Positions 731 through 64,000 of a stretch of DNA of 64,000 nucleotides are shown here, piece by piece. The notes beneath the pieces were generated by a model. That model worked only from the letters and a program-made list of their open reading frames with translations, ran no database searches and was not told where the DNA came from. The translations under genes were made by a program, and so were the position numbers. The stretch is from a virus: the UHGV virus genome UHGV-0087418; one strand, given 5' to 3'. How positions within the stretch are numbered: position 1 is the first letter of the stretch; the number at the start of each line of letters is the position of its first letter.

Positions 731-741
731 AATTTTCCTTA

Positions 742-2919: not shown

Positions 2920-2929
2920 AATTTCCTCA

Positions 2930-3133: not shown

Positions 3134-3158
3134 TTCAATATCCTCATTTGCCCAATTA

Positions 3159-3188
3159 ATTATACCACATCCTTGTGGTAAAGTAAAC
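3159..3188 (-). promoter_or_regulatory. T4-type early promoter (GTTTAC -35, GTATAAT -10 read on minus strand)
   Basis: Plus-strand 'gtaaac' at 3183-3188 and 'attata' at 3159-3164, about 18 nt apart; upstream of rIIA.1/rIIA. Confidence 0.5.
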
Positions 3189-5008
3189 TACTGGCTCATC
3201 CATTCTTTACGAAGGTCAGCATTATCTCCCATGAGCATTTCAAAAAGCTCTTTCCAGTTCTCAGGAAGTTTAACAACATCATATACTGGGTTTTGAATCA
3301 TCTCACGATATTCAGATTTTTCCAAAGAGCCAAGTCCCTTAATATAACGGATGCTATGTTTAGGTAGAGCATCTTTGGCACTCTCATATTCAGCGACTGT
3401 ATAAAACCATTCTTGTTTTTTACCGACCTGAGCGATGATTACAGGAGTTTTGACGAAACGAATTCTTCCTTGTTCAAACAGTTCTGGCCAATTACTAAAA
3501 AATCCGAGCAGAGAAGGATAAATGCTTCCTAGACCATCATGGTCGGCATCGGTCATAATTGCAATATTATGATAATTCAAGTTTTCGGCTTTTTCACCAA
3601 GAACTAATCCAGTGATTGCGCAAATATCAAATAGTTCTTTGTTTTTAAGCATATCAGCATATGACATACCCCAGCTGTTAAGAACTTTACCGCGTAATGG
3701 ATAACCACCATGAAGTTCTTTATCACGAACATCAATAAGATATCCGATAGCCGAATCACCCTCAGTCAAGAAAAGAGTAGTGTCAGCATCTTTACCACAA
3801 AGATTCGCTTTAATATGTTTATGAACCTTAGCTTTAGAAGCCTTTTTAGCTGCTTTAGTTTCTGCTGCCTTTTCTGCCGCCAATTTACGAGCCAAGGCAG
3901 CTTCAATAATTGGCATTAAAATTGCTTCATTATTTAAAATAGCGCGTGAAATCTTTTTAGCATCAAGCTGAATATGACTACGAATTTCACCAAATGGAGA
4001 AGTCAAACGCTCTTTAGTTTGAGAATCAAATCGCATGTTTTTCATATCACGAACAAACATAACGATAGTCAAACATTCTTTAACACGTGCTTTAGTTACA
4101 TCAATTTTGAACTTGCGTTTGATTTGTGGAATAAGGTCTTCACAAATATCATCCATAACGCAGTCAATGTGATGGCCACCATTCTTAGTATGAATGTTAT
4201 TGACGTATGTTAATTGACGAAAACCATCCGGTGAACGACCAACCGCAATAGAACAATTTTCTTGTTCTTGAACAATAGCATGCTCATCATATTGGCGTGC
4301 ATATTTCTTAAAATTGCCCTGAACCTTTTTACCATTAAAGGTAAATTGAATATCAGGATAAACTACTGCAAGTGTCTGGAGACGATCCAGTGTAATGTCA
4401 AGATAAACTTGAGATAGCTCATTAGTTTCAAATGACATAAAATCAGGAATGAAAGTAACACGTGTTCCTTTCCATTTTCCAGGAATATCTTCCCATGATT
4501 TATTTTCCATGCCATTTGAACAACGAACTACAATATTATTTTGACCGTCGCCAGTTTCACCGACAAACATCACAGAAAAAATGTTAGTTAAACTAGAACC
4601 AACACCGTTCATACCGCCAGTGACGCGTTCTTTGTCATCACCAAAGTTACCACCTGCTTTTGGAATAGTCCAGGCAGCAACAGGACCAGGAATTTCTTCA
4701 CCAGTAGGTGTTTTAACCATCGCTTGTGGAATACCACGACCGTTATCTTCAACTGTTACTTGATTGTTTTTAATAGTAACATTAATTTTATTTGCGAATT
4801 TAAACTTAGTACGAATACCTTCATCTACCGAGTTATCGATAATTTCATCAATAAGCTTAACAAGACCAGGTACATACTGAACACTTTCCCATTTACCAAA
4901 CAGAAAGCGCTCATGCATTTCATTAGCGGAAGAGCCAATGTACATGCCGCTACGCTTTTTGATATGTTCAATATCGCTCAGAATTTTAATTTCATTCTTA
5001 ATCATCAC
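3188..5008 (-). CDS. 39: DNA topoisomerase II large subunit, fused 39+60 type (GyrB-like ATPase)
   Basis: 606-aa ORF with GHKL ATPase and TOPRIM-like motifs; length matches the fused form found in T-even phages other than T4; no separate gene 60 or bypass segment seen. Confidence 0.9.
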   Translation of the reverse strand: MMIKNEIKILSDIEHIKKRSGMYIGSSANEMHERFLFGKWESVQYVPGLVKLIDEIIDNSVDEGIRTKFKFANKINVTIKNNQVTVEDNGRGIPQAMVKTPTGEEIPGPVAAWTIPKAGGNFGDDKERVTGGMNGVGSSLTNIFSVMFVGETGDGQNNIVVRCSNGMENKSWEDIPGKWKGTRVTFIPDFMSFETNELSQVYLDITLDRLQTLAVVYPDIQFTFNGKKVQGNFKKYARQYDEHAIVQEQENCSIAVGRSPDGFRQLTYVNNIHTKNGGHHIDCVMDDICEDLIPQIKRKFKIDVTKARVKECLTIVMFVRDMKNMRFDSQTKERLTSPFGEIRSHIQLDAKKISRAILNNEAILMPIIEAALARKLAAEKAAETKAAKKASKAKVHKHIKANLCGKDADTTLFLTEGDSAIGYLIDVRDKELHGGYPLRGKVLNSWGMSYADMLKNKELFDICAITGLVLGEKAENLNYHNIAIMTDADHDGLGSIYPSLLGFFSNWPELFEQGRIRFVKTPVIIAQVGKKQEWFYTVAEYESAKDALPKHSIRYIKGLGSLEKSEYREMIQNPVYDVVKLPENWKELFEMLMGDNADLRKEWMSQ

Positions 5009-5059
5009 TTATCCTCGTTTGGTTTCGGGAATATTATACTCCGGTAATCATAAAGCTAA

Positions 5060-5073
5060 AGGCCCGAAGGCCT
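5060..5073 (-). terminator. Stem-loop with CGAA/UUCG tetraloop, probable intrinsic terminator
   Basis: aggcc-cgaa-ggcct hairpin flanked by T/A runs, just downstream of the lipoprotein gene. Confidence 0.45.
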
Positions 5074-5074
5074 T

Positions 5075-5344
5075 TTATTTAAAACGGATAGTCGAATCCT
5101 TGAAGAATAGACCAGAACACACGGTTCCTTCTACTTTCTGCCCAGTAGGTCCAATAGCACGAAATCCAGTATGTTGGAAATCATTTTCAGAGCAACCGAA
5201 CCAGTTGTATCCAGTGATTTCAATATTAGTAAAACCACTTGAAGACAAAACTTTGGTTGCATTATCAGCATCAGTACATCCTGCTAAAGACACTGCTAAT
5301 ACTAATGCTGCGATAGAACGATTAATATATTTCATAGTTTTCAC
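5075..5344 (-). CDS. putative lipoprotein
   Basis: 89 aa; N-terminal signal peptide with lipobox LAGC. Confidence 0.5.
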   Translation of the reverse strand: MKTMKYINRSIAALVLAVSLAGCTDADNATKVLSSSGFTNIEITGYNWFGCSENDFQHTGFRAIGPTGQKVEGTVCSGLFFKDSTIRFK

Positions 5345-5712
5345 TTAAATTTAATGGCTTGAAGGAGACTAATAATTCTCAAGCGACTTCTTTCATCTTT
5401 AACTGTAAAAGAAAGAGGGTCACCAGATTTCATAGTGATAGTACATTCAAAATCAAAACCTTCGGGAACTTCTTCGAATAGGTGAAATTCGTAGTCATAA
5501 ATTAGAACATTACTCTGAAAACTGTGAAGAATTTTTCCGTCATTTCCAGATGCTGTACTAATCATTGTAACATTATTACCTTTCATATCTTCAACGATAA
5601 ATTCGCTTGTAGATATTACGGCATTAATAGAACCATTCCTATAAATAGCAGAAAATAGATATTTCTTTTCTTCACCTTCGCGAATGCGATATTTCTTACC
5701 AATTTTAAACAT
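5341..5712 (-). CDS. hypothetical protein
   Basis: 123-aa ORF, ATGA overlap with downstream gene. Confidence 0.45.
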   Translation of the reverse strand: MFKIGKKYRIREGEEKKYLFSAIYRNGSINAVISTSEFIVEDMKGNNVTMISTASGNDGKILHSFQSNVLIYDYEFHLFEEVPEGFDFECTITMKSGDPLSFTVKDERSRLRIISLLQAIKFK

Positions 5713-5714
5713 AA

Positions 5715-5891
5715 TTACCCTTTAAGTAAGTCGTAAAAACCACCATTCACATGCTTAGGAGCGGAAACTAACCGAATAGCAACCCGATGACAATCAGGAC
5801 ATACATCAGTATCCCTTTCAGAAATTTTCTTGATTTTTTCGTATTCTTTTTCGCAGTCTTTGGATTGACATTTATAATCATAAAGCGGCAT
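5715..5891 (-). CDS. small zinc-ribbon protein (about 58 aa)
   Basis: Hand-translated MPLYDYKCQSKDCEKEYEKIKKISERDTDVCPDCHRV...; two CxxC pairs; below the 60-aa cutoff of the ORF track. Confidence 0.35.
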   Translation of the reverse strand: MPLYDYKCQSKDCEKEYEKIKKISERDTDVCPDCHRVAIRLVSAPKHVNGGFYDLLKG

Positions 5892-5893
5892 AA

Positions 5894-6307
5894 TTATTCC
5901 TTAAAGTGAGCTTTCAACATCTGATACAAAGACCATGCCTGTACATTATTTTCAATAGTAATGTTCATAACCGGGAATTCAGATGGATCAGTTATTGTTG
6001 CAGATTCTTCCTGTTCTTCAGCTGCCTGGTATGGATTTTCAACTTCATTAAAGAATTCAGCTTCATTCGATGAAAGCCAAATAAAATCTTCATCCAAAAT
6101 ATCTTTACCAGAAGATAGTACTAAATTTCCAGCAAATGACATAATTTTAATAGGACGCCCAAGAGCATCCACATCTAAAATTTTAAAAGGATGCATACCT
6201 AAACGGCGTGCATAGATTCCGTTATCAGTATGGTCTTTAATAAAATTTTCTTGAGCTTGTTTATTTTTAAATTGATACCATTTATTAACTTCAAATTTAA
6301 TAGCCAT
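5894..6307 (-). CDS. hypothetical protein
   Basis: 137-aa ORF in the minus-strand gene array. Confidence 0.45.
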
Positions 6308-6522
6308 TAATAAATTTCCTTCCAGTAAGTTGTACCGTCTTCAGTGATTTCACGAAATACACCGTAAATTGGTTGTTTATCCCCAACCTTTTCATACACA
6401 TAAACCGAAGTCAAGTGAGTAAACTTAGCAGTGTGTTCCTTTTGAACTACTACCAAATCTGGATCGAATAACACATCTTCAAATTCGTCATTAGTGCAGT
6501 TCTGAACAATTTTACGTTTCAT
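6307..6522 (-). CDS. hypothetical protein
   Basis: 71-aa ORF, start/stop overlap with neighbour. Confidence 0.4.
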
Positions 6523-6625
6523 TACAATTTCCTCGTTAATTGAACATTGGAGCGATGCGTTTCAGAAGAGTAGCAGCACCTTTGGCAAATTTTCCATTTT
6601 ATTCTCCAAGTTATTTTCTGTATCA

Positions 6626-6662
6626 GTAGTTGATATTGATATAGTACCATAATCAACTACTG
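6626..6662 (-). promoter_or_regulatory. Perfect 11-bp inverted repeat (cagtagttgat / atcaactactg) enclosing a -10-like element; promoter-plus-stem-loop cassette
   Basis: Inverted repeat read directly; the loop contains tatagtacc, which is related to the repeated promoter cassettes at 25562-25596 and 53960-53994. Confidence 0.4.
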
Positions 6663-6693
6663 ATGTATATAGTTTTATGAAAAAATTTAAACT

Positions 6694-7191
6694 TTATGCA
6701 TAGCGAGCTTTGCTATAGTGTTTAATCCAACTTTCAGGAATGACTTTGTATGTTCCTAAAAATACCGCATTGTACAACTTAACGCCATCTTCTACCCATT
6801 GATCGGTAATGTATGCACACATAGCGCGAGTACGATGTTTTTGAACAACCCCTTCTTCGTCTTCGGTAAATTCAAATTCATAAGGAGCGACGAACTTAAT
6901 AGCTTGACCGAGTTTCCACTTAAAGTCTACACCTACATGCGAAGTATCAATCGTTTCAATTCCTTTAGCAGGAACAGCTTTCAAAAACGCAGACTCAAGA
7001 AATTTCGCACGAACATAGCCAAACTGGGGTTTAGACTTTCCATCTTTAGGAATGATACGCACTTTTACTTCAGAATCTTCATCTTTAACACCGTGTTTAA
7101 GCTGAATGCTTACAATTTCAACCAATTTTCCTGCTGCTTTAGAACGGGATTTATCAGATACACGAGCAATTTCACCAATATTAATAATCAT
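6694..7191 (-). CDS. hypothetical protein, paralogue of the next gene (MotB-like position)
   Basis: 165 aa; shares the C-terminal motif C.Y[IV]TDQW[IV]EDGV.L.N.V with ORF 7268-7807. Confidence 0.45.
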   Translation of the reverse strand: MIINIGEIARVSDKSRSKAAGKLVEIVSIQLKHGVKDEDSEVKVRIIPKDGKSKPQFGYVRAKFLESAFLKAVPAKGIETIDTSHVGVDFKWKLGQAIKFVAPYEFEFTEDEEGVVQKHRTRAMCAYITDQWVEDGVKLYNAVFLGTYKVIPESWIKHYSKARYA

Positions 7192-7267
7192 AGTTATCTC
7201 TCACTTGTTAAAAAGATTTTATACTCCACAGGACCATTATACTCTGGTCCCAAGAGTTTGTAAACTA

Positions 7268-7807
7268 TTAATTCAAAATAGCTACCACTGCACTACGAGG
7301 TACTACGCTAAAATCACCTGCATGAACAACGTTCAGGAGTTCAACGCCATCTTCAATCCACTGGTCTGTTACCCAACCACAGACCGAAATAAATGGAGTC
7401 TTGATAGCTACTGCACGAGTCAAAAGGTCAGTAGGATCAACTTCTTTGAAGAGGATAATCTCTGCTTCAAAGACTATAGTTTTAATTACTTCATCATTAT
7501 CTAAGCGTTGTGCTCGAATCACGTAAGCTTTATTCTTATCATACCAATTACTTTTTGAAAAACTTTTAACCACAAACTCGCCTTCACCAAAAACACTAGT
7601 CAATGCTTTATAACCCAAATCTAGTTCAGTAGTTTTAATTTCAGTTTCAACCAGTTTGTAGATTTTGCCGATTTCAATAGCGGTAGTCATAGTAGGTTCC
7701 TTAATTTCCAGTGGTTTAACAGGGCATACATAAGTGCTTACAACATCAAAATCAATCAATTTGGCTGCCGGATTTGGTGTGTATTCAGGATTATAATTAA
7801 ATTTCAT
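7268..7807 (-). CDS. hypothetical protein, paralogue of the previous gene
   Basis: 179 aa; C-terminal CGWVTDQWIEDGVELLNVVHAG similar to ORF 6694-7191. Confidence 0.45.
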   Translation of the reverse strand: MKFNYNPEYTPNPAAKLIDFDVVSTYVCPVKPLEIKEPTMTTAIEIGKIYKLVETEIKTTELDLGYKALTSVFGEGEFVVKSFSKSNWYDKNKAYVIRAQRLDNDEVIKTIVFEAEIILFKEVDPTDLLTRAVAIKTPFISVCGWVTDQWIEDGVELLNVVHAGDFSVVPRSAVVAILN

Positions 7808-7809
7808 AA

Positions 7810-8310
7810 TTATCTCATTTCAATAAAATCTATAAGTTCAGCATGGGATTTACGGAACATTACTTGATGTCCGCCAATGATAACTTGGTCATCTGGCACT
7901 TCGTATACAGCAAGATAAAATCCTTTAGAAGATAATTCTTCACGCTCTTCTCGTGTGAACCATCTCATCATATCATATTCACTAGCGAAAGCAAAATGAT
8001 AAAGAGCTATAAACCATCCTGGAATATGATATTCTACTCCAACATAATCTTTCTTGAACTTAGTATTAATTACTATATTAGCGTTTTTAACTAATAGTTT
8101 ATCTTCATGTGGTACAGGAATTCTTTTATTATCATCGCTATGATGCATAAAATTAGGTCTACTATAACCTACACGTAATAGCCACTCTTCGCTCCATGAA
8201 TCTATTATACTCCTGTACGGCGTTATTTGAACACAAAGATTTCGACGTATTGTTATAGCATCTTCATAATCAAGAATACTAAACGATGATTCAACACGAT
8301 AAATTTTCAT
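7810..8310 (-). CDS. hypothetical protein
   Basis: ORF-track start at 8349 lies upstream of the promoter -10; likely start is the ATG at 8308-8310 (MKIYRV...) with a GAGGA ribosome-binding site. Confidence 0.45.
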   Translation of the reverse strand: MKIYRVESSFSILDYEDAITIRRNLCVQITPYRSIIDSWSEEWLLRVGYSRPNFMHHSDDNKRIPVPHEDKLLVKNANIVINTKFKKDYVGVEYHIPGWFIALYHFAFASEYDMMRWFTREEREELSSKGFYLAVYEVPDDQVIIGGHQVMFRKSHAELIDFIEMR

Positions 8311-8336
8311 TTTATTATCCTCAGTAGCTATGGTGT

Positions 8337-8367
8337 TATAATACCACAACTAACCGAGGAAGTAAAC
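8337..8367 (-). promoter_or_regulatory. T4-type early promoter
   Basis: Plus 'gtaaac' at 8362-8367 and 'ataata' at 8337-8342 (GTTTAC-N17-TATTAT on minus strand). Confidence 0.45.
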
Positions 8368-8373
8368 AACTTT

Positions 8374-9057
8374 TTATCGTTTTGTTGGAAGAGACAGAGG
8401 ATCGCACTCTTCCTCTGACGGAGCATCTTCAAGACCCATAGCATATCGCAAAGCATACTTCATCATCAGGATGTCTTTCGCACAATCATGAATAGAATCA
8501 TGCGCAACGAATCCGTCTAAAGTTCCCTTTGGAAGAGGACATGTGGTCATATCACGAACAAGCAGAAGTGCTTCAATTCTGGTACGAATATCACGCTGAT
8601 TCCAGAATTTACATGGTTCTAACTTAAATGTATCAAGCTCATTCTCAGAAACGCCGTTAAAACGTTGAATATCGCGAATGAGATCAACTAAAATTGGAAA
8701 ATCAAACGACATTCCACGGCACCAGCCTTGAGATTTCCAAGGATCGATGTTATGTGCATTGATATAATCATTAAATTTTACAATACCATCGATGGTGCTT
8801 ACATCTTCATCTGATGGTGCAATATTTTTTCGAGCTTCAGGAGACTGATTTTTCCACCATTCGATAGTGCTTTTAGTAAAAAGACGATGTCCTTTTTGAC
8901 TTTTTAAATCAAATTTGATTTTAATGCCGCGCGAAACTAATTCATCAAATGTTTCAACTACTTCTGGGTTAGGATCAAAGGCAATAACAGCTAAGTCAAT
9001 AACAGCTGCTTTTTCACCGCTTCCCATTGTTTCAAAATCTATAATAAAATCAAACAT
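8374..9057 (-). CDS. dexA: exonuclease A (DnaQ-like 3'-5' exonuclease)
   Basis: 227 aa from the internal start MFDFIIDFETMG (DEDD exonuclease motif I); position before dda. Confidence 0.8.
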   Translation of the reverse strand: MFDFIIDFETMGSGEKAAVIDLAVIAFDPNPEVVETFDELVSRGIKIKFDLKSQKGHRLFTKSTIEWWKNQSPEARKNIAPSDEDVSTIDGIVKFNDYINAHNIDPWKSQGWCRGMSFDFPILVDLIRDIQRFNGVSENELDTFKLEPCKFWNQRDIRTRIEALLLVRDMTTCPLPKGTLDGFVAHDSIHDCAKDILMMKYALRYAMGLEDAPSEEECDPLSLPTKR

Positions 9058-9310
9058 TAATAATCGCCTTATAAAGATGGCTAATTTCACCTAAAATATA
9101 ATCACTGATTGTGACAGTTTTCACTCTACCGCAAAAGAATTCTAACGCAGTCAAATCTCGTTCAATTTCTTCCAATTGAAGCATTAACTTACTAGACTCA
9201 ATTTTTACAGTTTCATAATTTTTACTATAAGATATTTCATAAATTTCGCTTACTTTATCTTGAAGAAGATAAAACTGATCTTTAGTTATTTCCACGAATA
9301 GCTTCCTCAA
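9050..9310 (-). CDS. hypothetical protein
   Basis: 86-aa ORF between dexA and dda; start may be internal. Confidence 0.4.
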   Translation of the reverse strand: MRKLFVEITKDQFYLLQDKVSEIYEISYSKNYETVKIESSKLMLQLEEIERDLTALEFFCGRVKTVTISDYILGEISHLYKAIINV

Positions 9311-9542
9311 ATTTAATCAGCAGCTTACAGACACTTTCATCTAGCGTAATTACCGTGTCTGTATTACTATGATATGATTGTTTTTCAATTCGTTTAACTG
9401 CTAGTATAGTATCACTTATAAGATTAAGCTTATAAAGGAGCTCAGCTCCTGTTATCATAACACTGAGGTTATCTTGCTTATCAGTATGCTTCTTTATACC
9501 ATCTATTAGACGATTTAAATATTTTGAATTGATGTTAATCAT
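9282..9542 (-). CDS. hypothetical protein
   Basis: 86-aa ORF between dexA and dda. Confidence 0.4.
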   Translation of the reverse strand: MININSKYLNRLIDGIKKHTDKQDNLSVMITGAELLYKLNLISDTILAVKRIEKQSYHSNTDTVITLDESVCKLLIKFEEAIRGNN

Positions 9543-9548
9543 ATATCC

Positions 9549-10868
9549 TCACACATAAAACACATCATAACGACCACGAGTGACACCAACATAAAGAAGC
9601 TGCTGAGCCAATTCAGCGTCTGCATAATGAATACAAGGCGTATAGATGAAAGCACGGTCTACAGACATGCCCTGAGCTTTGTGAAATGTTGATGCAGGAA
9701 GTGCTTTCACTTTACTAAACTGTGATTTAGCATCCCAAAAATCACTCCACGGAGCTTTTCCACCTTTATTCCAATTTTTATAAGTTTCTGCCGTTTTACC
9801 TAAAAATAAGTTAAACTTATACAGCTCTTCATCAGATGAAATTATTTTAATCTTTTCACGATAATATTCATCGTCGCCGTAAGTTTCTACTGTTAAATCC
9901 CAATGACGAATTAGATATTCTCCAGAAACACCACGAGCTTTAACAAATGTTGATGTATACTCTGCTTCTATAATACGAACTAATTGTCCGTTATTAAAAA
10001 TAATTTCTGACACAGGCTTTCCATCAATTTTATATGTTTTAATTAATGGTTCCTGCATTACAATAATTTCACCAACGATAAAATCTTTATCAGTTTCAAA
10101 AATCTTTTTGCGAATAATGCTATTTAACTTATCAACAGATTTATTCGTAAATGCCATTACGCGATTTTCAAACAAATCATCTAGTGATTTTACGATTGAA
10201 AAATAATTTACCATAAAATCGCGTAAAGCGGTATCACCAGTAAATCCACGTACTCCATGCCCGTCAACAACTTTATCATAAATCCACTTACCGTTGCGAA
10301 CATCAGTAGCTACATCAATAATAGGAGCATTACTGCGTTTAACTTCAGTGAGTTCACACTGATAAAAATCTTTATGTGTAAAGAATGGGCTGATATAAGC
10401 AGTGTTTTCTCCTGGGTCAACAGGTCTAATTTGCTTATTATCGCCTATTCCAATTATAGTACACCATGGCGGGATAGTTGAAAGTAGAATTTTGAATAGC
10501 TTTCTATCATACATTGACACTTCGTCGCAGATTAATACTCTACATTTAGCTAAATCTGGTACTTCTTTTTGTTCAAAAAGAACGTTTTCTTCATATGTTA
10601 CCGGGTTGATTTTGAGAATACTGTGAATAGTACTCGCTTCTTTCCCTGACAGTTTTGAAAGAATCTTTTTAGCTGCATGAGTAGGAGCTGCTAAAATAAT
10701 ACCAGTTTCGCCTGTAGATATTAAGGCTTCAATGATGAACTTAGTAAGAGTAGTCTTACCAGTACCAGCAGGTCCATTAATAGTTACATGATGTTTCTTT
10801 TCTTTAATAGCCCTCATAACGATGTTAAAGGCATTTTTCTGGCCTTCTGTCAAATCATCAAATGTCAT
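9549..10868 (-). CDS. dda: Dda DNA helicase (SF1B)
   Basis: 439 aa; Walker A GPAGTGKT and helicase motifs; length matches T4 Dda. Confidence 0.9.
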   Translation of the reverse strand: MTFDDLTEGQKNAFNIVMRAIKEKKHHVTINGPAGTGKTTLTKFIIEALISTGETGIILAAPTHAAKKILSKLSGKEASTIHSILKINPVTYEENVLFEQKEVPDLAKCRVLICDEVSMYDRKLFKILLSTIPPWCTIIGIGDNKQIRPVDPGENTAYISPFFTHKDFYQCELTEVKRSNAPIIDVATDVRNGKWIYDKVVDGHGVRGFTGDTALRDFMVNYFSIVKSLDDLFENRVMAFTNKSVDKLNSIIRKKIFETDKDFIVGEIIVMQEPLIKTYKIDGKPVSEIIFNNGQLVRIIEAEYTSTFVKARGVSGEYLIRHWDLTVETYGDDEYYREKIKIISSDEELYKFNLFLGKTAETYKNWNKGGKAPWSDFWDAKSQFSKVKALPASTFHKAQGMSVDRAFIYTPCIHYADAELAQQLLYVGVTRGRYDVFYV

Positions 10869-11176
10869 CGTAAATTCCCTGCAATTGGTATACTAACAAT
10901 ACGCCCAGTATCTAAAATTCGCCGATATAATCTTTGTGTGTCTACATCAGGCTTAACATGTTTAACTTCTATTTTATTAAACCAAAACTTGCGTGGAGTC
11001 TCAACTAATCTCGGAATTCCCATACCTAAAGCTAGTCGATACTGCTCTTTAAGAGTGGTAAATACTTTATCAGCAATCTCCCTTTCAAAAAATACAGCAG
11101 GGCGATGTTCATCAAGCGGAACTGGCGCCGTAAATCCATCTTTATCTCTATAAACTATCGCATATACATAAAACAT
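10865..11176 (-). CDS. hypothetical protein
   Basis: 103-aa ORF overlapping the dda start. Confidence 0.45.
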   Translation of the reverse strand: MFYVYAIVYRDKDGFTAPVPLDEHRPAVFFEREIADKVFTTLKEQYRLALGMGIPRLVETPRKFWFNKIEVKHVKPDVDTQRLYRRILDTGRIVSIPIAGNLR

Positions 11177-11177
11177 A

Positions 11178-11924
11178 TTATCCTCGGATAAGTTTAAAAA
11201 TTGAACAATTTAGCGGGTATCCTCTTTTCAGTTTAAGTTTATCAATAAAAGACAAGTTTTGATACCGCTCTACACCTTGAATAATTTTATCACACATATC
11301 ATATTGCATTTCTGCTTCTGACAACTTTTTCACAGTTTTCCAATCCGAGCCTTTAAGAAGAACGTTCAATTTAACAACTTCAGCGCCTTCTGCTATACGA
11401 GAACCATCAATACGAGCTTTGAGTGCTACAATCGTTAGCTTAATGTCAGAGGTCTGTTTTGATTTAGAAAGCTGAGAAATGTGCTCAATTCGGTTTTCAC
11501 GTTTTTTCTGTATAGCTTTAATTTGATTATAAGTCTTTTTGATTTTAGCCCATTTCTTTTCATCTAAATTTAGTTTATAAACTTTTTTCGCAGATGAACG
11601 ACCAATTCGCAAAGCAAATAAATCACGCTTTTCAATCAACTCTTCTAAAGTATAATCAGAACGAAATGTATTGTACTTTTTCTTTACTGCAATAACATTC
11701 CCTTTAATGTATCCAACGTTATTATCAAAACGTTCTAATGATAATTTCTCTCCTTCAATACGATTATCAAAAGGTTCTCCTGAGTAAGCGCAAACTTTCT
11801 GATCTAAAATGTTCTTAATGTAATTGAAGTCTAAGTTAAAATCTTTAGAACGTCTTTTGGCAGATGCCTGAGTGTGCTCAAGACGACGTTTAATTTTACG
11901 AATTTGATTATTAGACAGTTTCAT
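11178..11924 (-). CDS. hypothetical basic protein (Srd-like position)
   Basis: 248 aa, lysine-rich; located between dda and modA as srd is in T4; the name is not verified. Confidence 0.4.
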   Translation of the reverse strand: MKLSNNQIRKIKRRLEHTQASAKRRSKDFNLDFNYIKNILDQKVCAYSGEPFDNRIEGEKLSLERFDNNVGYIKGNVIAVKKKYNTFRSDYTLEELIEKRDLFALRIGRSSAKKVYKLNLDEKKWAKIKKTYNQIKAIQKKRENRIEHISQLSKSKQTSDIKLTIVALKARIDGSRIAEGAEVVKLNVLLKGSDWKTVKKLSEAEMQYDMCDKIIQGVERYQNLSFIDKLKLKRGYPLNCSIFKLIRG

Positions 11925-11950
11925 ATTTTTCTCACGGACGGTTAACTACT

Positions 11951-11983
11951 TATACTATAACATTTTTACTTCAACTTGTAAAC
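11951..11983 (-). promoter_or_regulatory. T4-type early promoter
   Basis: Plus 'gtaaac' at 11978-11983 with a TATAGT-like -10 around 11951-11958 on the minus strand. Confidence 0.4.
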
Positions 11984-11996
11984 AACTTTATGAAAA

Positions 11997-12021
11997 TGCT
12001 TTAAAACTTTCATGGTATAAT
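11997..12021 (+). promoter_or_regulatory. MotA-box middle-promoter-like element on the plus strand (TGCTTTA-N12-TATAAT)
   Basis: tgcttta at 11997-12003 and tataat at 12016-12021; points antisense into modA. Confidence 0.3.
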
Positions 12022-12038
12022 GAATCTAAGTCCTTCCA

Positions 12039-12641
12039 TTATAGATTAAATCCTTCAAAATCAAGAGTATAGATAGTGTATGTTGAATACTTTTTATACT
12101 CGTATCTATCCGCAATTCTAAATACACTTCCAGCTGGTATCATTACTTCTTGTTCATCTGAAACTAATTCCATATTACGATAACGATGGCTATCCGGAAA
12201 TTTAAAACTCGGGCTATATTCTTTACAACGTAAAGCTTTTATAGCATACTCCTGGAAATTAAACACCATAGGAGCTTTGAATTCAAAAATAACTTGCGTG
12301 TTGTATTCTAATCCAGAAGCAAAATGTAGAGCTATATTTTTATCATATGAAGCTGATACTACTTTATCAAATGTAATAATATCAATTCCTTGATTTAACA
12401 CCTGTTTAGTCTCAACTGGAACACCTCTCCAAAGAGGTTTATCGTTTGGAACCAAACGAGATTTGATTATTTCATTTAACCAAGAATGATCGTCTGGCTT
12501 ATTAGTAATACAATGAATTAAAAGTTCAATTTCGGATAAATTAAATCCTTCAGAAAGTAATTCTTCACGAATAGAAGCACGCACAGATGCATCCATTGAT
12601 TTGATTTTAAAATCTTTTAATTGCATTGCTGAATATTTCAT
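12039..12641 (-). CDS. modA: ADP-ribosyltransferase ModA
   Basis: 200 aa; R-S-ExE ART signature (WRG ... SAS ... EQEVM); position next to modB. Confidence 0.7.
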   Translation of the reverse strand: MKYSAMQLKDFKIKSMDASVRASIREELLSEGFNLSEIELLIHCITNKPDDHSWLNEIIKSRLVPNDKPLWRGVPVETKQVLNQGIDIITFDKVVSASYDKNIALHFASGLEYNTQVIFEFKAPMVFNFQEYAIKALRCKEYSPSFKFPDSHRYRNMELVSDEQEVMIPAGSVFRIADRYEYKKYSTYTIYTLDFEGFNL

Positions 12642-13273
12642 TCAACTACCTCAATATCATACACTTTAAATGTTCCAAATGAATCGTGTAATTTTTCTTT
12701 TGAAATAGAAGTTATTTTATACTTTCCAATTGGAATCATCCATTCTTGTTCACGTACAATCATCATTAAGTTATCAGTACGTTCTGAATCTAATCCATCA
12801 GTATCTTCATATGTATACTTAAACTCAGTATTAGGAGAAGAAAGTATAATATCGCTGATATGATCAGAATAATTAAAAGCTTTATCAGTTTTTAAGCGAA
12901 ATATTATTTCAGTGGAATATTCAACATAAGAAAAACCACATGCTGTGTGCAAACTAGTAGTAAATGAATCTACTCTGTTCGTTGAAAACACTTCTCCAAC
13001 TTGTAAATCTTTAATGAGTTCTTTTGTCGATTTTGATATACCACGATATAGCTGATAAGGCGATTTAGTTAAATGCTTTTTAACGATTTTATTCAACTGC
13101 CGATGAAGAGCTTCATTCTTTTTGGCTTCCATACACTGCCAAAGAACTGACTGTTCAAAGTCAGTAAATTTTTCACAGACCATTTTGTACATATCATATT
13201 GAAAATCAACACTTTCAGCTTTTATAGATAACTGTTCAACATCTGCGAGATTAATAATCATGATAGCCTCCAT
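12638..13273 (-). CDS. modB: ADP-ribosyltransferase ModB
   Basis: 211 aa; paralogue of ModA with YRG ... ST ... EQEWM. Confidence 0.7.
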   Translation of the reverse strand: MEAIMIINLADVEQLSIKAESVDFQYDMYKMVCEKFTDFEQSVLWQCMEAKKNEALHRQLNKIVKKHLTKSPYQLYRGISKSTKELIKDLQVGEVFSTNRVDSFTTSLHTACGFSYVEYSTEIIFRLKTDKAFNYSDHISDIILSSPNTEFKYTYEDTDGLDSERTDNLMMIVREQEWMIPIGKYKITSISKEKLHDSFGTFKVYDIEVVE

Positions 13274-53959: not shown

Positions 53960-54014
53960 CCAAATCCGTATCAGTTGATAGTTGTATAGTACCATAAAGC
54001 TTTATGCTTGTAAA
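53960..54014 (-). promoter_or_regulatory. Early-promoter/leader cassette, copy B (GTTTAC-N17-TACTAT plus conserved leader)
   Basis: Plus 'gtaaac' at 54009-54014 and 'atagta' at 53986-53991; 35-nt leader identical to 25562-25596. Confidence 0.5.
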
Positions 54015-54037
54015 CCGTTTTGTGAAAAAATTTTGAA

Positions 54038-54057
54038 ATAAAAAAAAGGGAGCCCGA
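54038..54057 (-). terminator. Strong intrinsic terminator (UUCG tetraloop, U8 tail)
   Basis: gggagcc-cgaa-ggctccc followed by T8 on the minus strand; ends the nucleotidyltransferase operon. Confidence 0.7.
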
Positions 54058-57650: not shown

Positions 57651-58037
57651 TTATTCGAGGGAAAGAAGATATTTGCTCTGGTAAAACATCCCAGTAATAT
57701 CATCTATCGTGCTTTGAATGGCTGGAGGCATTTCTTTATAAATGCTGTTAGATTGGTCTAGTATGCGATCAATCATTTTAATTGTGTCGGTAGGAAGTTT
57801 ACTGGCATCTGGAATTGAAGGCGTGTATTTTCTACCAGAATACCCTAAATATTGCTCACCAAATTTATCAATCAAATCTGGCAATTCAGAGAAAATAAAA
57901 TCGTATGCTTTGTGTCTAGCATAACTTTTAGTTTCAAAATGCGCAGAATGAAAATAAGCTTGTGCAGCCATTAATAAACCTAAGTATTCATCTGCCTTTG
58001 AAGGTTTTCCACTTTGTGAAAAGTCGCTGAATTTCAT
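57651..58037 (-). CDS. hypothetical protein (rI.-1-like position)
   Basis: 128-aa ORF immediately upstream of rI. Confidence 0.4.
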
Positions 58038-58327
58038 TCAGTCTCCAATTTAATGTTCATAATTCTAGCGTATGATTGTGCCATCTCCGCGCCTCGTTCT
58101 ATACATTCAAAATCGGAAGAGCACGGGTCATTTTTATAGGTCGTTCGCATAAAACTATAGAACTGTTCAGATGATTCTACGCTTTTATTTTCAAAAAGCA
58201 TATAAACGTGTCTAATACCAGATTCCATAAATTTATCAAAATGAGGATCGACATTCGCTTCAATTGGTGGAGATAAAGCAAACGCTAATCCTAGCATGGC
58301 AAATAGTGCCGTTGCTTTTAAGGCCAT
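58034..58327 (-). CDS. rI: lysis-inhibition regulator RI (antiholin)
   Basis: 97 aa, MALKATALFAMLGLAFALSPPIEANVDPHFDKFMESG...; signal-anchor plus periplasmic domain. Confidence 0.8.
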   Translation of the reverse strand: MALKATALFAMLGLAFALSPPIEANVDPHFDKFMESGIRHVYMLFENKSVESSEQFYSFMRTTYKNDPCSSDFECIERGAEMAQSYARIMNIKLETE

Positions 58328-58339
58328 AAAGGCCTCCTA

Positions 58340-58552
58340 TCATTTTTGTCCTGTATTTACTTTATGCCGATGCACGGCCTTAACTTTATCAAGGTATTTT
58401 TCAAAATTTCGCAATCTAGTATAGTCTGCCGGAGATTGGTTGAGTGATACTTCTCGACGCAAAGCTGAAATGATATTTCCAGCTTCCCTACGAATTTCAT
58501 CTAATTGAAGAACAGTAAGATTGCGAAGTTGCTTTTCAGTTAATTGTAGCAT
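58340..58552 (-). CDS. hypothetical protein
   Basis: 70-aa ORF between rI and tk. Confidence 0.4.
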
Positions 58553-58594
58553 ATATACCCCTTTAGTTAGATAAACCTATTTATAACTTTTGCA

Positions 58595-59176
58595 CTAACC
58601 GAGCTTTTTAGTTAATTCATTCCAATGTTTTCTACACAAAGAAACATAAATTTCATCACCAATACAGATTTGATTACCTTCTTTAACTGGTGTTCCATCT
58701 TCCATTAATCGAGCTGTCATAATAGCCTTTTTACCACAATGACAAACTGCCTTTAGTTCAATAAGTTTATCTGCAATCGCCAAAAGTTCTTTAGAACCTT
58801 CAAATAATTTTCCAGCGAAATCAGTCCTTAGCCCATAAGCCATAACAGGAACATTATATGTATCAACAATTCGGCTTAATTGATGCACCTGTTCAGTTTT
58901 TAAAAACTGGGCTTCATCTACAAATACACAATGAATATCTTTTTGTGCTTCAGCCCATTTATAGAACTCAAAAATATCCATATCATCCGTAATAATATTC
59001 GCTTCCTGCTTAATTCCAATGCGAGAAACGACTTCACAGACAGAATCACGAGTATCAATAGCAGGCTTAAGAACTAATACACCCATTCCGCGTTCTTTAT
59101 AATTATGCGCAGCAGTTAAAAGAGAAGCAGATTTTCCAGCATTCATTGCTGCGTAAGTAAAAATTAAACTCGCCAT
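58595..59176 (-). CDS. tk: thymidine kinase
   Basis: 193 aa; P-loop AMNAGKS; C-terminal Zn-ribbon CHCG...C. Confidence 0.85.
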   Translation of the reverse strand: MASLIFTYAAMNAGKSASLLTAAHNYKERGMGVLVLKPAIDTRDSVCEVVSRIGIKQEANIITDDMDIFEFYKWAEAQKDIHCVFVDEAQFLKTEQVHQLSRIVDTYNVPVMAYGLRTDFAGKLFEGSKELLAIADKLIELKAVCHCGKKAIMTARLMEDGTPVKEGNQICIGDEIYVSLCRKHWNELTKKLG

Positions 59177-59185
59177 ATCACCTTC

Positions 59186-59371
59186 TTAAAGCGTATTCAC
59201 ATAAGCTATTAATTCGTTTTCTTTCTTATCAAACCGATCAGCAAATTCTTCTTGCTGATCGGGAGATAGCGGGCCGTATTCATCATAAAAGGTGTTTGCT
59301 TCTGTATGCTCATCTAGAAGTTCATGGATAAGCTCAAACAATTTATCTTTTTGTTCTTTACTCAGACTCAT
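59186..59371 (-). CDS. hypothetical protein
   Basis: 61-aa acidic ORF. Confidence 0.35.
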   Translation of the reverse strand: MSLSKEQKDKLFELIHELLDEHTEANTFYDEYGPLSPDQQEEFADRFDKKENELIAYVNTL

Positions 59372-59537
59372 ATATTAATTTCCAGGAGTTTTAAAATAAT
59401 TCGCTTTTGCTTAAATATTTCCATAGTTAAATGACCAGTATCTTTTTGACCGATTCCAATGGCAAAACCTTTATTGACAGCGAGTTCAATTAAATTATCA
59501 AGCTCACGTAACACTTCATATTGTAACTCAAAACTAT

Positions 59538-59765
59538 TCATTTCGGTTTACCTTCTTTAACGAAATCGGGATAAGGATAAAATCCTGAATAAAATCCTTC
59601 ACCTTTATGATTGATGCATCCTTTATTAGAACAATAGCACCAATAATCGAAATCACAAGTCATTTCATCATTACATAAAGCAAAAACAACTGGCCATTCA
59701 CACTTTTCGCAGTGGGCATTTTTAAGAATACTTGTTTGGCTCATAACCATGTAACCTTTAAACAA
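59538..59765 (-). CDS. hypothetical Cys-rich protein
   Basis: 75 aa; multiple Cys/His residues. Confidence 0.35.
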   Translation of the reverse strand: MFKGYMVMSQTSILKNAHCEKCEWPVVFALCNDEMTCDFDYWCYCSNKGCINHKGEGFYSGFYPYPDFVKEGKPK

Positions 59766-59953
59766 TATTCTTCTACGTGTTGTTTACGACCTTTCTTATC
59801 AATAAAGGTATATTCAACGAATGTTCCAATATAGTCTTTATCTACACCATGTGGACTATTAATTGGGCATTTAGTACGGCAAATGCGTTCCCATTGACGA
59901 ATAATTTCCACTTTGTTTTTAGGATCAAACGGATGCGGGTAATGTACTTTCAT
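59741..59953 (-). CDS. hypothetical protein
   Basis: 70-aa ORF. Confidence 0.35.
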   Translation of the reverse strand: MKVHYPHPFDPKNKVEIIRQWERICRTKCPINSPHGVDKDYIGTFVEYTFIDKKGRKQHVEEYCLKVTWL

Positions 59954-60404
59954 AATCCACCACTATTAAATCAATATCAGGAGTAAACATGTCGATTAAT
60001 TTAGAAACCTTATCCCAATCGCCGCCAGCAATACCGCAACCTATACGTGGAATGTAAATTACTGGTTTAAACAAAAGGGTTTCTGCCTGTAGATTTAATT
60101 CTATCATGCAGTTTACTAAAGCACCATAATCAAGATTAGGACCCGGTTCGTATTGTGTATACAGGTTATAGCATATACCAAATCCCGTAGGGCTATGTTT
60201 AAAAACAATAGACATATCGCCTAATTTATCACGAGAACCGTACTCGGTAGTGGTTTTATCTATTTCTAAAATTTTGGGATAGGCTCTTGCTAATTGACCC
60301 GCTACGCCAGAGCCCATTGTGTGGAAGCAATTGCACCCGTGCGCAATAATATTACCTTGAAGAAATAGGGCGACAATATCGCCCTTGATATATTTTACAA
60401 TCAT
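59925..60404 (-). CDS. macro-domain protein (ADP-ribose binding/processing)
   Basis: 159 aa; KGDI...NIIAHGCNCFHTMGSGVAGQ and IPRIGCGIAGGDW match macro-domain signature regions. Confidence 0.6.
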   Translation of the reverse strand: MIVKYIKGDIVALFLQGNIIAHGCNCFHTMGSGVAGQLARAYPKILEIDKTTTEYGSRDKLGDMSIVFKHSPTGFGICYNLYTQYEPGPNLDYGALVNCMIELNLQAETLLFKPVIYIPRIGCGIAGGDWDKVSKLIDMFTPDIDLIVVDYESTLPASV

Positions 60405-60748
60405 CTAGTACTCAATCCTCGATTATAAGAATCTACTAAACGGTCAACCATTGAATGACAAGCGGCTTTATCTTTCTCCTCCGCAACTGAACATTCTAAA
60501 GTATTCCACTTTTTAGCATATCGTTTTAACAATGTATCATTTTTGTATCTGCTTGATTTATCTCTTTCTCCGTCTTTATATGCATATATTAATTTCTGCG
60601 CAAATTCAGCTTGGCATGCTTTATTTTTCCCACAATAATCCGCGGCAGTACGGTTTACATACTCTCTAATTTCAGTATATGATGTATCTGCTAACGCAGA
60701 AGCAGAAAATGAAATTAATCCTATACATAAAACCAAAATTTTAGTCAT
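60401..60748 (-). CDS. secreted/periplasmic hypothetical protein
   Basis: 115 aa; signal peptide MTKILVLCIGLISFSASALA; four Cys in the mature part. Confidence 0.45.
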   Translation of the reverse strand: MTKILVLCIGLISFSASALADTSYTEIREYVNRTAADYCGKNKACQAEFAQKLIYAYKDGERDKSSRYKNDTLLKRYAKKWNTLECSVAEEKDKAACHSMVDRLVDSYNRGLSTR

Positions 60749-61286
60749 TTACTATTTCCAAAAGTTTATTATTTTTAAGGTAATTAGCCTTTTCTAGGAC
60801 TTCAGAAGCATATTTAGAACCTGCTTTAACATTCCATCCCGAATTATAAGAGGATATCGCCTTTCTTATATCGCCCTTATGTATATTTAACCAATAAGAA
60901 AGTTCAATGTACGCCCAGGAAGCTGAATTGGACCGTTTATTCAACATTCTTTTTATTTCAGCATCGGTCATATTATAACCAAGTTCCTTAACTCTTGCTC
61001 GCATAGTAGGCAAATAATTTTGGAACATTCCATAGGCATGATGCTTTGGTTTAGATTTTAAATTAACTCCGGCAGAGCTTTCTTGCCATAAAATAGCAGC
61101 CATTATATGACCTAATCCGCTCTTGTGGATATTTTTGTGTGTTTTATATTTTCCATCCTTAGAAAATTGTTCCCCGAATTGATACGCGTAACGCATGTTA
61201 TCGAGTTGGACATTACTGAAAGTATGCTCGGAGCTATGCGCCATCATTGAAATGGCCAATAGACCAGCGAGTAGTGCTTTTCTCAT
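60741..61286 (-). CDS. periplasmic lytic transglycosylase-like protein (SLT domain)
   Basis: 181 aa; signal peptide; SLT motifs WQESS, GMFQ, SYNSGW. Confidence 0.55.
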   Translation of the reverse strand: MRKALLAGLLAISMMAHSSEHTFSNVQLDNMRYAYQFGEQFSKDGKYKTHKNIHKSGLGHIMAAILWQESSAGVNLKSKPKHHAYGMFQNYLPTMRARVKELGYNMTDAEIKRMLNKRSNSASWAYIELSYWLNIHKGDIRKAISSYNSGWNVKAGSKYASEVLEKANYLKNNKLLEIVND

Positions 61287-61293
61287 GCTTACC

Positions 61294-61755
61294 TCATTGA
61301 GTTTTAATTACTGCTTTAGAAGCCTTTCCTGGTAAACGACGACTGTTGATAATTGCCATCCTGCATTGAAGCGACGGGTCTTTGAACTTCGCATTAGGTT
61401 TACAAACTGTAAATCCAAGCCAAAGATTTCCATCTGTGATTTCTAAACGTCCAGGACGGTATTCAACCCCATCAATAAAATCCTCATCAATGTCAGGACG
61501 CGGAGGCATACTCAGGAATTCATTAACTTCTAAAACATGGTCTTTTATTTTGTGGAATAATTCAAAAACATATGTCTCATCAATCTCCCGTTGAATTGCA
61601 CGATCAAGAAGATGCTGAGAATATTTTAGATGAAACGATGAGACCCCTGCTGCTTTTGATGCCTCACGAATCTCATTGTTAATTTGACGAAACTCCGACT
61701 CAAAGTGACGACGAAGCTTATTTCGACGGATAAAAACTTCTGTGTTGATAGTCAT
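61294..61755 (-). CDS. regB: RegB endoribonuclease
   Basis: 153 aa; size and position after tk and the vs-region genes match T4 RegB. Confidence 0.6.
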   Translation of the reverse strand: MTINTEVFIRRNKLRRHFESEFRQINNEIREASKAAGVSSFHLKYSQHLLDRAIQREIDETYVFELFHKIKDHVLEVNEFLSMPPRPDIDEDFIDGVEYRPGRLEITDGNLWLGFTVCKPNAKFKDPSLQCRMAIINSRRLPGKASKAVIKTQ

Positions 61756-61814
61756 GTTATTCTCCTCTTAACTGATAGAAAAATTATACCACAGTCAAGA
61801 GGAAAAGTAAACAG

Positions 61815-62135
61815 TTATTCTTTAAATCTAATCAATTTATTCATAGACTTTGAAACTTCTGCACGGACCTCATGTAGGTTTTTAAGCTGTTCAAGACGTT
61901 GCTCATAGTAAGCAATTTCATCTTCTTCGAGGCAGTCCTGTGAATCTTCTTTAAGATAACGCGCATAGTCCTGGAAAGCGTTACGAATTACTTCCTGGAA
62001 ATCATCAAGACTTTGAATTTTCTTAGGAGCAACAGATACACGACGAGGGGCAGTATAATACTCATAACCAAACCCTGCGCTTAATTGAGCCATTAATATT
62101 TTTCCTCTGGTTGGAATACCGCGCGACAAGCCCAC
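61815..62135 (-). CDS. hypothetical protein
   Basis: 106-aa ORF. Confidence 0.4.
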
Positions 62136-62395
62136 ATACTAGCTTCTTTGAGTTTCGTTTTAGCAATAGTTAGCTGATCAAGGCTTTCAGCATAATTCTT
62201 TGCGAATTCGTAGTCTTCGCAATTATCTAGTGCTTCCCAGAATTCATCGTATAAAGCGTCAAAGATAAGTCCTAAACGAACTTCAGCGTCTTTAATAGCA
62301 TTCACTTTATCGATTTTCTCTTCAGTGTGCGGCTTATAACCTTTAATATCTTCAATCATATTTGACTTCCTCACCCGTTCCCAAATCATATTCAA
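62093..62395 (-). CDS. hypothetical protein
   Basis: 100-aa ORF; start may be internal. Confidence 0.4.
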
Positions 62396-62573
62396 CTAAA
62401 CGAATAGGTTCATGAATGCCATATCCTTGAACAGAAATTTCTGTCGTAGGATAAATTCCATTAATATCACCCATGTTCCACGCTTCATTAAATTGCTGTT
62501 CGCCTGAATTACTAAACCATTCTGCAAAAGCATTTAACACATCTTCAGAACCTTCAATAATTATCTTTGCCAT
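62352..62573 (-). CDS. hypothetical protein (last phage-type gene before the junction)
   Basis: 73 aa; AT-rich phage codon usage; its ATG (62571-62573) overlaps the grcA stop codon in a TAATG arrangement. Confidence 0.45.
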   Translation of the reverse strand: MAKIIIEGSEDVLNAFAEWFSNSGEQQFNEAWNMGDINGIYPTTEISVQGYGIHEPIRLVEYDLGTGEEVKYD

Positions 62574-62956
62574 TACAAGCTCTCAGTAAAGGTACGAGCG
62601 ATAACGTCGCGCTGCTGTTCCGGAGTCAGAGAGTTAAAGCGAACTGCATAACCGGATACACGGATGGTCAGCTGCGGATATTTTTCCGGATGCTTAACTG
62701 CATCTTCCAGAGTTTCACGACGCAGAACGTTAACGTTCAGGTGCTGACCACCTTCAACGCGAACTTCTGGTTTCACTTCTACTGGAACTTCACGGTACTC
62801 AATGTCACCCAGTTTGCTTACTGCAACCACTTCGTCTTCTGCATAACCTGCTTTTGCAACGATGCAACGTGCTTCGCCTTTTTCGCTGTCCAGCAGCCAG
62901 AAAGAGTTCAGCAGATCGTCGTTAGCGGCTTTAGTAATCTGGATACCTGTAATCAT
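62573..62956 (-). CDS. grcA: autonomous glycyl radical cofactor GrcA (YfiD), host-type
   Basis: 127 aa from [16 protein letters not shown]... to ...[29 protein letters not shown] (glycyl-radical motif RVSGY); GC-rich E. coli codon usage unlike the flanking phage DNA; the ORF-track N-terminal extension MPGRHH is discarded. Confidence 0.9.
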
Positions 62957-63063
62957 GTGATGCCTCCCCGGCAAAATTATTTGATTTGTTCAGCCTGTCG
63001 CGGCCAATTGGTAAAACCATTGTTGCTTGAGTGTATATATACTCCTCAAACACCCTTGAATCT

Positions 63064-63077
63064 TTGATTTAAATCAA
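63064..63077 (-). promoter_or_regulatory. FNR-type binding site (TTGAT-N4-ATCAA) in the grcA promoter region
   Basis: Perfect palindrome ttgatttaaatcaa at 63064-63077 upstream of grcA; grcA is known to be FNR-activated. Confidence 0.55.
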
Positions 63078-63260
63078 TAAAAACCACACATCAAGTGTGG
63101 TCGCAAATGGATTTTATTGTTTTACATCAACTTATGCGGGTGTGAAATTTTACCAATTTACATTTTTTTGCACTCGTTTAAGTCTAAAAAATGAGCATGA
63201 TTTTGTTCTGTAGAAAGAAGCAGTTAAGCTAGGCGGATTGAAGATTCGCAGGAGAGCGAG

Positions 63261-63950
63261 ATGGCTAACGAATTAACCTGGCATGACGTGCTGGCTGAAG
63301 AGAAGCAACAACCTTATTTTCTTAATACCCTTCAGACCGTCGCCAGCGAGCGGCAGTCCGGCGTCACTATCTATCCACCACAAAAAGATGTCTTTAACGC
63401 GTTCCGCTTTACCGAGTTGGGTGACGTTAAAGTGGTGATTCTCGGCCAGGATCCTTATCACGGACCGGGACAGGCGCATGGTCTGGCATTTTCCGTTCGT
63501 CCCGGCATTGCCATTCCTCCGTCATTATTGAATATGTATAAAGAGCTGGAAAATACTATTCCGGGCTTCACCCGCCCTAATCATGGTTATCTTGAAAGCT
63601 GGGCGCGTCAGGGCGTTCTGCTACTCAATACTGTGTTGACGGTACGCGCAGGTCAGGCGCATTCCCACGCCAGCCTCGGCTGGGAAACCTTCACCGATAA
63701 AGTGATCAGCCTGATTAACCAGCATCGCGAAGGCGTGGTGTTTTTGTTGTGGGGATCGCATGCGCAAAAGAAAGGGGCGATTATAGATAAGCAACGCCAT
63801 CATGTACTGAAAGCACCGCATCCGTCGCCGCTTTCGGCTCATCGTGGATTCTTTGGCTGCAACCATTTTGTGCTGGCAAATCAGTGGCTGGAACAACATG
63901 GCGAGACGCCGATTGACTGGATGCCAGTATTACCGGCAGAGAGTGAGTAA
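63261..63950 (+). CDS. ung: uracil-DNA glycosylase
   Basis: 229 aa, [25 protein letters not shown]... with the UDG active-site motif [14 protein letters not shown]; E. coli-type sequence and composition; divergent from grcA as in E. coli K-12. Confidence 0.95.
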
Positions 63951-64000
63951 ATTTGCGGGAAAATGCCGGATGGCAGAGTTGCCACCCGGCTGATTTATCA

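Follow-up and report, generated by a model that had tools for sequence, protein, structure and literature searches.

Two spare-part proteins that repair pyruvate formate-lyase (PFL) after its cleavage by oxygen have been validated, namely YfiD/GrcA and the T4 protein Y06I (PMC8683613). For YfiD and T4 Y06I, it has been reported that the glycyl radical is installed by the PFL activase and that cleaved PFL is rescued (PMC8683613), and the role as an autonomous glycyl-radical 'spare part' is credited to Wagner et al. 2001, as cited in the same paper. The T4 gene, vs.6, has also been noted as a conserved Gly_radical open reading frame (ORF) of T4-like phages (PMC1524935).

The locus described here, in which T4-like phage DNA runs into Escherichia coli DNA within grcA, has to be compared to vs.6 itself and to two ways in which a complete phage unit can become joined to a chromosomal sequence. 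One is Campbell-type single-crossover integration, for which the plasmid-phage cointegrates of T4 insertion/substitution genetics provide a comparison, and the other is the formation of repeat-induced chimeric contigs in de Bruijn graph assemblies. The DNA analysed is a stretch of 64,000 nucleotides from virus genome UHGV-0087418, which is referred to below as the window.

The vs.6 gene of T4-like phages

T4-like phages carry their own GrcA homologue, vs.6 (SwissProt Y06I), between regB and denV, the interval in which the original prediction had placed a T4 GrcA/YfiD homologue. The 5' half of vs.6 is AT-rich (GC 0.34) and phage-specific, and the last ~185 nt are nearly base-identical to E. coli grcA. 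In T4, this 3' part differs from E. coli grcA at 5 positions out of 186 nt and contains an exact run of 138 nt, and in other Tequatroviruses the exact runs measure 52-175 nt. An E. coli-like 3' half that ends in TAATG is found in T4, in phage 107 and in 18 other T4-like loci, and the T4 genes vs.5 (63381-63557) and vs.6 (63557-63919) have the same 1-nt overlap as is found in the window.

When the last 183 coding nucleotides are compared with E. coli grcA, T4 is identical at 97.3% of the positions, phage 107 at 97.8% and a Mosigvirus at 95.1%; the bacterial grcA genes of Citrobacter and Salmonella reach 92.9% and 84.7%, respectively. The phage sequences are nearer to E. coli grcA than these two bacterial genes are, they have a host-like GC content, and phages and E. 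coli strains have some of their variable sites in common, which suggests a recent or repeated exchange from Escherichia to phage at this locus. A limited search of the literature found no description of such an exchange at vs.6. A more general rule, namely that the 3' half of vs.6 tracks the host genus, was rejected, since it applies only to the E. coli-infecting Tequatrovirus and Mosigvirus phages, which are 95-98% identical to E. coli grcA DNA, whereas for T4-like phages that infect Klebsiella, Enterobacter or Cronobacter the identity to any sampled grcA is only 79-90%, with protein C-termini that are almost the same. The similarity of the vs.6 3' half in the E. coli phages offers a modest lead towards recent or ongoing host-to-phage exchange in a metabolic spare-part gene.

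GrcA-like genes as such are present in 1,589 of the 50,697 phage records, including those of T5-like phages (about 52% protein identity), giant Yersinia and Klebsiella phages, and Aeromonas and Vibrio phages. Their annotations are diverse and comprise pyruvate formate-lyase, 2-ketobutyrate formate-lyase, acetyltransferase and ribonucleotide reductase subunit.

Gene content of the window and position of the switch

Positions 1-62572 of the window represent a T4-like (Tequatrovirus) genome with the usual gene order, starting near rIIA, and this phage part is 95-98% identical to many phages. Toward the junction, the genes are tk, vs, regB, vs.3, vs.4 and a 73-aa vs.5 homologue, and up to the junction this order is the same as in T4 (regB-vs.3-vs.4-vs.5-vs.6). 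The features around the junction are listed below.

61294..61755, minus strand: regB (T4-like endoribonuclease), a 153-aa ORF; PF10715 REGB_T4 in an identical ENA contig
62093..62359, minus strand: vs.4 homologue, 88 aa; PF24729 and a gene call in a 100%-identical ENA contig, same position as T4 vs.4
62352..62573, minus strand: vs.5 homologue, 73 aa, the last purely phage gene; an ORF whose ATG (62571-62573) overlaps the TAA of the next gene as TAATG
62573-62956, minus strand: hybrid grcA ORF, 127 aa; TAA at 62573-62575, product equal to E. coli GrcA
62573..62582, minus strand: last codons and stop of the hybrid grcA with phage-type bases, GAG AGC TTG TAA versus GAA AGC CTG TAA in E. coli
62583..62743, minus strand: exact repeat core of 161 nt in which phage vs.6 and host grcA are the same; the phage/host switch is placed somewhere inside
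62744..62956, minus strand: E. coli-type part of grcA (5' two thirds of the gene); host allele CAG at 62744, host-specific from there on
62957..63260, no strand: spacer between E. coli grcA and ung; 99% identity to chromosomes of E. coli that have this gene order
63261..63950, plus strand: E. coli ung (uracil-DNA glycosylase), a 229-aa ORF; NF003589 at 382 bits, PF03167, annotated as ung in the E. coli matches

On many T4-like genomes, exactly the same 73-aa vs.5 protein is encoded directly downstream of a 120-aa phage vs.6, and on the other side of the junction ung is divergent from grcA and situated 304 nt upstream of it, as in E. coli. The vs.4 homologue, two genes away from the junction, belongs to PF24729 (Acb2/Tad1 hairpin), a family of phage anti-defence sponges, and is a usual gene of T4-like phages. 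No Rfam match was obtained in the window, and a scan for promoters and terminators around the junction gave hits at chance level only.

The translation of the window ORF is identical to GrcA of E. coli 88-3493 (annotated as WP_000627807), so that the claim that it encodes the host protein was right. The ORF (62576-62956, minus strand) scores 234 bits with TIGR04365 over residues 2-127, against a cut-off of 170, and 68.8 bits with PF01228, and genuine phage Vs.6 reaches 153 bits with TIGR04365, just under the GrcA equivalog cut-off of 170. By every test run, i.e. model score, identity and the grcA-ung context, the window gene classifies as a member of the GrcA family, and because its 5' half is that of the host, it is not phage vs.6. 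Its last 61 codons are the same as those of phage Vs.6, of which the 61 C-terminal residues are 100% identical to GrcA. The features of a vs.6-type gene that are present are the E. coli-like 3' half and the TAATG overlap with vs.5, and those that are absent are the AT-rich 5' half (MKAYQILEG...) and the upstream vs.7, with an E. coli 5' half and ung in their place.

At about 62570-62600, the GC content climbs from about 0.35-0.40 to 0.47-0.50, with about 0.36 before and about 0.49 after the stop codon, in agreement with the change from AT-rich to GC-rich DNA described in the original prediction. The same prediction described the change from phage to host as nucleotide-precise at 62573. The coordinates given for the gene overlap, with the phage ATG at 62571-62573 and the TAA at 62573-62575 forming TAATG, are correct, but the precise switch at this point did not hold, since phage references match the window through 62757 (about 98%) and phage alleles are present at 62578 and 62582. 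E. coli matches positions 62569-64000 at 99%, and because both sets of references cover 62573-62757, this segment belongs equally to phage and host. Not one of the 5,426 complete E. coli genomes has the two phage alleles of 62578 and 62582, the best of them matching at 99.5% with two mismatches, the window has the host allele at 62744, and over the intervening 161 nt (62583-62743) the two parents do not differ. Based on these diagnostic bases, we place the true phage-to-host switch inside the gene, within 62583-62743. The join indeed falls at a point of phage/host homology, as had been proposed, and this homology is stronger than was stated, being an exact repeat of 161 nt.

It had also been proposed that an identical junction in reference T-even genomes would turn the host-like segment into ordinary phage content. 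For position 62573 this is what was found, as these genomes have the TAATG and the GC-rich 3' half as well. As T4-like phages possess this TAATG and a vs.6 with a 3' half that is GC-rich and resembles E. coli, the change in composition at the stop codon is a normal part of T-even genomes. It is a genuine and separate feature, which reflects the host-derived 3' half of vs.6.

The source contig, its reciprocal junction and a second fusion

The exact vs.5 protein was found in eight phage genomes of normal structure and in two contigs in which phage DNA passes into E. coli DNA in the same way. The tail of the window is 100.000% identical over 11,649 nt, junction included, to contig NODE_1_length_353259_cov_22.95 of ENA assembly ERZ724095 (353,259 bp, hereafter NODE_1), the name of which has the SPAdes format. 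After the junction, the host side of NODE_1 continues with grcA-ung-yfiF-trxC-tapT-patZ-pssA-yfiM-kgtP for about 10.5 kb until the contig ends, past kgtP, at what is presumably the position adjoining the rrnG operon on the K-12 map, a typical break point for short reads. A homology search with the phage Vs.6 protein identified a 120-aa variant whose longest contig is again NODE_1, and here a second junction is located: the phage genes e-ipII-denV-vs.7-vs.6 (5' half) are directly followed by E. coli eamB-yfiE-srmB-trmN6-nadB-rpoE-rseABC-lepA. The complete layout is E. coli (about 174 kb), vs.6-5'::repeat, one whole phage genome, repeat::grcA-5' and E. coli (about 10.5 kb). From one stop codon to the other, the distance is 168,352 bp, the size of one T4-like genome.

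The 161-nt core occurs once at each junction of NODE_1. In the left copy, the 5' edge carries the phage allele and the 3' edge host alleles, and in the window copy this is reversed. When the two copies were swapped at the core, a grcA gene was obtained with 0 mismatches in 384 nt to that of E. coli 88-3493, as well as a vs.6 gene with 0 mismatches in 363 nt to that of Yersinia phage fPS-90. K-mers shared between the reconstructed parents (k = 21 to 161, within 20-kb flanks) were found solely in the core, and at k = 162 there were none.

The same phage is represented by a stand-alone JGI contig of 168,407 nt (3300045988 Ga0495776_001673), which is 100% identical over 12,919 nt (window 1-12919). 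Its length corresponds to the 168,352-bp phage unit of NODE_1 plus a terminal overlap of 55 nt and fits a free circular genome. The window phage is also 100% identical over 12.9 kb to Logan contig ERR866564_1177, and the run ERR866564 may be the one from which ERZ724095 was assembled.

Searches of genome collections gave a consistent picture. T4-like DNA from the window (58000-62560 and 1-50000) had no match in the 5,426 complete E. coli genomes, and no T4-like phage was found resident in any of these independent finished genomes. When the rest of the phage DNA of the window was compared to the same genomes by megablast, nothing was found beyond one 54-nt match in one genome, so that no repeat in the window other than that of grcA is common to all 5,426 complete E. 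coli genomes. The 54-nt match concerns window positions of about 53997-54050, with 94% identity to an unannotated region of a single strain, E. coli BE104. Conversely, none of the 50,697 phage records contained grcA-5'/ung DNA or a match to the grcA-ung intergenic region. Exact-pattern scans of IMG/VR, the GTDB genomes and the JGI metagenomes for the chimeric junction gave 0 matches. A scan of the JGI metagenomes for the intact phage vs.6-vs.5 arrangement also gave 0 matches, although the same pattern does match phage fPS-90, and in IMG/VR, which was scanned for allele combinations, only 5 contigs carry the conserved 65-mer. We found no papers that name ERZ724095 or ERZ27239000.

The latter ENA assembly contains a second, independent phage-E. 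coli join at grcA, on the MEGAHIT contig k119_54599 (183,435 bp; junction at 9618-10001 of the examined locus). Its parents differ from those of the window, with 95.5% identity for the T4-like phage and 97.4% for E. coli, and its grcA is at best 97.9% identical to that of any E. coli. In this gene, the alleles are those of the host up to position 225 and those of the phage between position 240 and the stop codon; the switch sits at the outermost 5' end of the homology, and beyond it all variable sites are of the phage type. Sixty-four GenBank phages (AR1, RB3, RB5 and others) have an allele combination that would give an exact block of 38 nt with such a host at this position. As these phages could supply the block, the structure of k119_54599 fits a merge at small k, followed by bubble popping to the dominant (phage) allele.

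Other long contigs carry vs.6 genes with a phage 5' half: an RB68-type Vs.6 is present on a contig of 489,447 bp and another T4-type variant on a contig of 196,677 bp. These lengths exceed that of a T4-like genome, which makes it probable that public assemblies contain further phage-host fusions. A 215-kb contig was set aside, as its neighbourhood at vs.6 is that of a normal phage. The GenBank record of Shigella phage KNP5 (KX452698.1, 193,624 bp) is about 25 kb longer than a typical Tequatrovirus genome and has a normal vs.6 neighbourhood; the excess may be redundancy or foreign sequence.

A probable assembly chimera and competing explanations

We consider the join to be a repeat-induced assembly chimera, and not an integrated phage or captured host DNA, with a probability of roughly 0.88. 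The observations that carry this reading are an exact repeat that is longer than k and contains the switch, the layout with two junctions, the recovery of both parental sequences without mismatch when the copies are swapped back, and the absence of the structure from finished and curated genomes. The sample would have held an E. coli strain together with a free T4-like phage. Default assembler k-mers are not known to exceed 127, and the 161-nt repeat is longer than this and about the size of a short read. At such values of k, the exact stretch would make the circular phage and the chromosome touch at one shared edge in the assembly graph, with two paths leading in and two leading out. The sole walk that uses every edge once would then run from the chromosome through the repeat, around the whole phage circle, through the repeat again and back into the chromosome, which is the layout of NODE_1, and the window would be the right-hand exit of this walk. 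The assembler would in that case have taken the chromosome-phage path without read support. What counts against such a course of events is that SPAdes normally uses read pairs to avoid joins of this kind, which would mean that either the insert information was weak or some supporting molecules did exist. Of the three readings that the original prediction had left side by side, the assembly chimera formed through grcA is the one we favour, and the replacement of phage grcA by host grcA and the capture of host DNA by a phage did not survive. It is most likely that the phage-to-host junction flagged in the window has no biological basis.

The existence of supporting molecules is the central element of the best of the competing explanations, in which, during infection, a T4-like phage and the E. 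coli chromosome truly recombined in the 161-nt vs.6/grcA core, and a Campbell-type cointegrate or linear hybrids were present in sufficient numbers to steer the assembly. The two reciprocal junctions of NODE_1, which enclose one phage unit between direct repeats, are precisely those of a single crossover, and a true single reciprocal crossover of the Campbell type in the core would yield exactly the same sequence and the same allele pattern. T4 recombination is efficient on short homologies, and the shared stretch is long enough for it. Moreover, the 3' half of vs.6 looks as if it has been repeatedly exchanged with E. coli grcA over evolutionary time, so that recombination at this site does appear to occur in nature, and the join recurs in a second assembly. 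However, this recurrence fits a systematic artefact and recurrent real recombination alike, and the switch in the second contig lies at the edge of the homology and not in the longest identical block. In addition, recombination products are expected to be rare relative to the parental molecules, T4 degrades host DNA and its own DNA carries modified cytosine, and the structure is present in 0 of 5,426 finished E. coli genomes and in 0 of 50,697 phage records. An artefact of the assembly graph predicts the same sequence without the need for any rare molecule, and we therefore regard real recombinants as improbable. If such molecules were nevertheless real, which we consider equally improbable, vs.6/grcA would be a natural and recurrent hotspot for phage-host recombination in a strictly virulent phage, and the same process, i.e. 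gene conversion from host to phage, would keep the 3' half of vs.6 97-98% identical to E. coli grcA.

Supporting molecules could also have been generated in vitro, by PCR template switching within the shared 161-185 nt during library amplification. With such chimeric library molecules, it would be understandable that the path was accepted in spite of the use of read pairs, and no part of the window other than the shared stretch has universal homology between phage and host. A join via a repeat that is longer than k does not require them, however, and this explanation is very improbable.

Finally, the window alone, in which phage genes continue into an intact host grcA with a phage-type gene junction, would suggest a viable phage with vs.6 replaced by host grcA or with captured host DNA, or a stable T4-like prophage, but this is the least probable explanation of all. 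NODE_1 also carries the 5' half of the phage vs.6, at a distance of 168,352 bp and joined to the host eamB flank, which contradicts a replacement. The host DNA of about 10.5 kb and about 174 kb does not return to phage DNA and brings the total to 353 kb, more than a T4 headful, which contradicts captured host DNA. Moreover, grcA-5'/ung is absent from all 50,697 phage records, and this T4-like DNA from all 5,426 complete E. coli genomes. T-even phages have a strictly virulent life cycle in which the host DNA is degraded, and their heads take up about 170 kb, so that neither a stable prophage nor a 353-kb virion is credible. They are not known to have integrase, repressor or lysogeny functions, and their early genes are lethal to the host.

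For the assembly chimera, which remains our preferred reading, the practical consequence is one of quality control. Short-read assemblies of samples with both E. coli and a T4-like phage are prone to fusion at grcA/vs.6, and in virome and prophage surveys the resulting contigs can mimic integrated T4 prophages, captured host DNA or host-range links. At least two public ENA assemblies contain such a fusion.

When compared with T4 vs.6 (Y06I) and E. coli GrcA, the window ORF encodes exactly GrcA and has the stop/start overlap with vs.5 that is the T4 arrangement, but the N-terminal two thirds and everything upstream are host, whereas the 5' half of a genuine vs.6 is AT-rich and starts with MKAYQILEG. 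The likeness to Campbell-type integration lies in the layout of NODE_1, with one phage unit flanked by direct homology repeats in the form of reciprocal hybrid copies; the difference is that T-even phages do not lysogenise and that none of the 5,426 finished E. coli genomes has such a structure. With repeat-induced de Bruijn chimeric contigs, the locus shares an exact edge with the junction inside it, a circular replicon that is unrolled once between two copies of the repeat, parents that are restored exactly by a swap, and a structure that is absent from finished genomes. It differs from them in that the repeat is not a mobile element or an rRNA operon but a host-derived half-gene that is native to a virulent phage.
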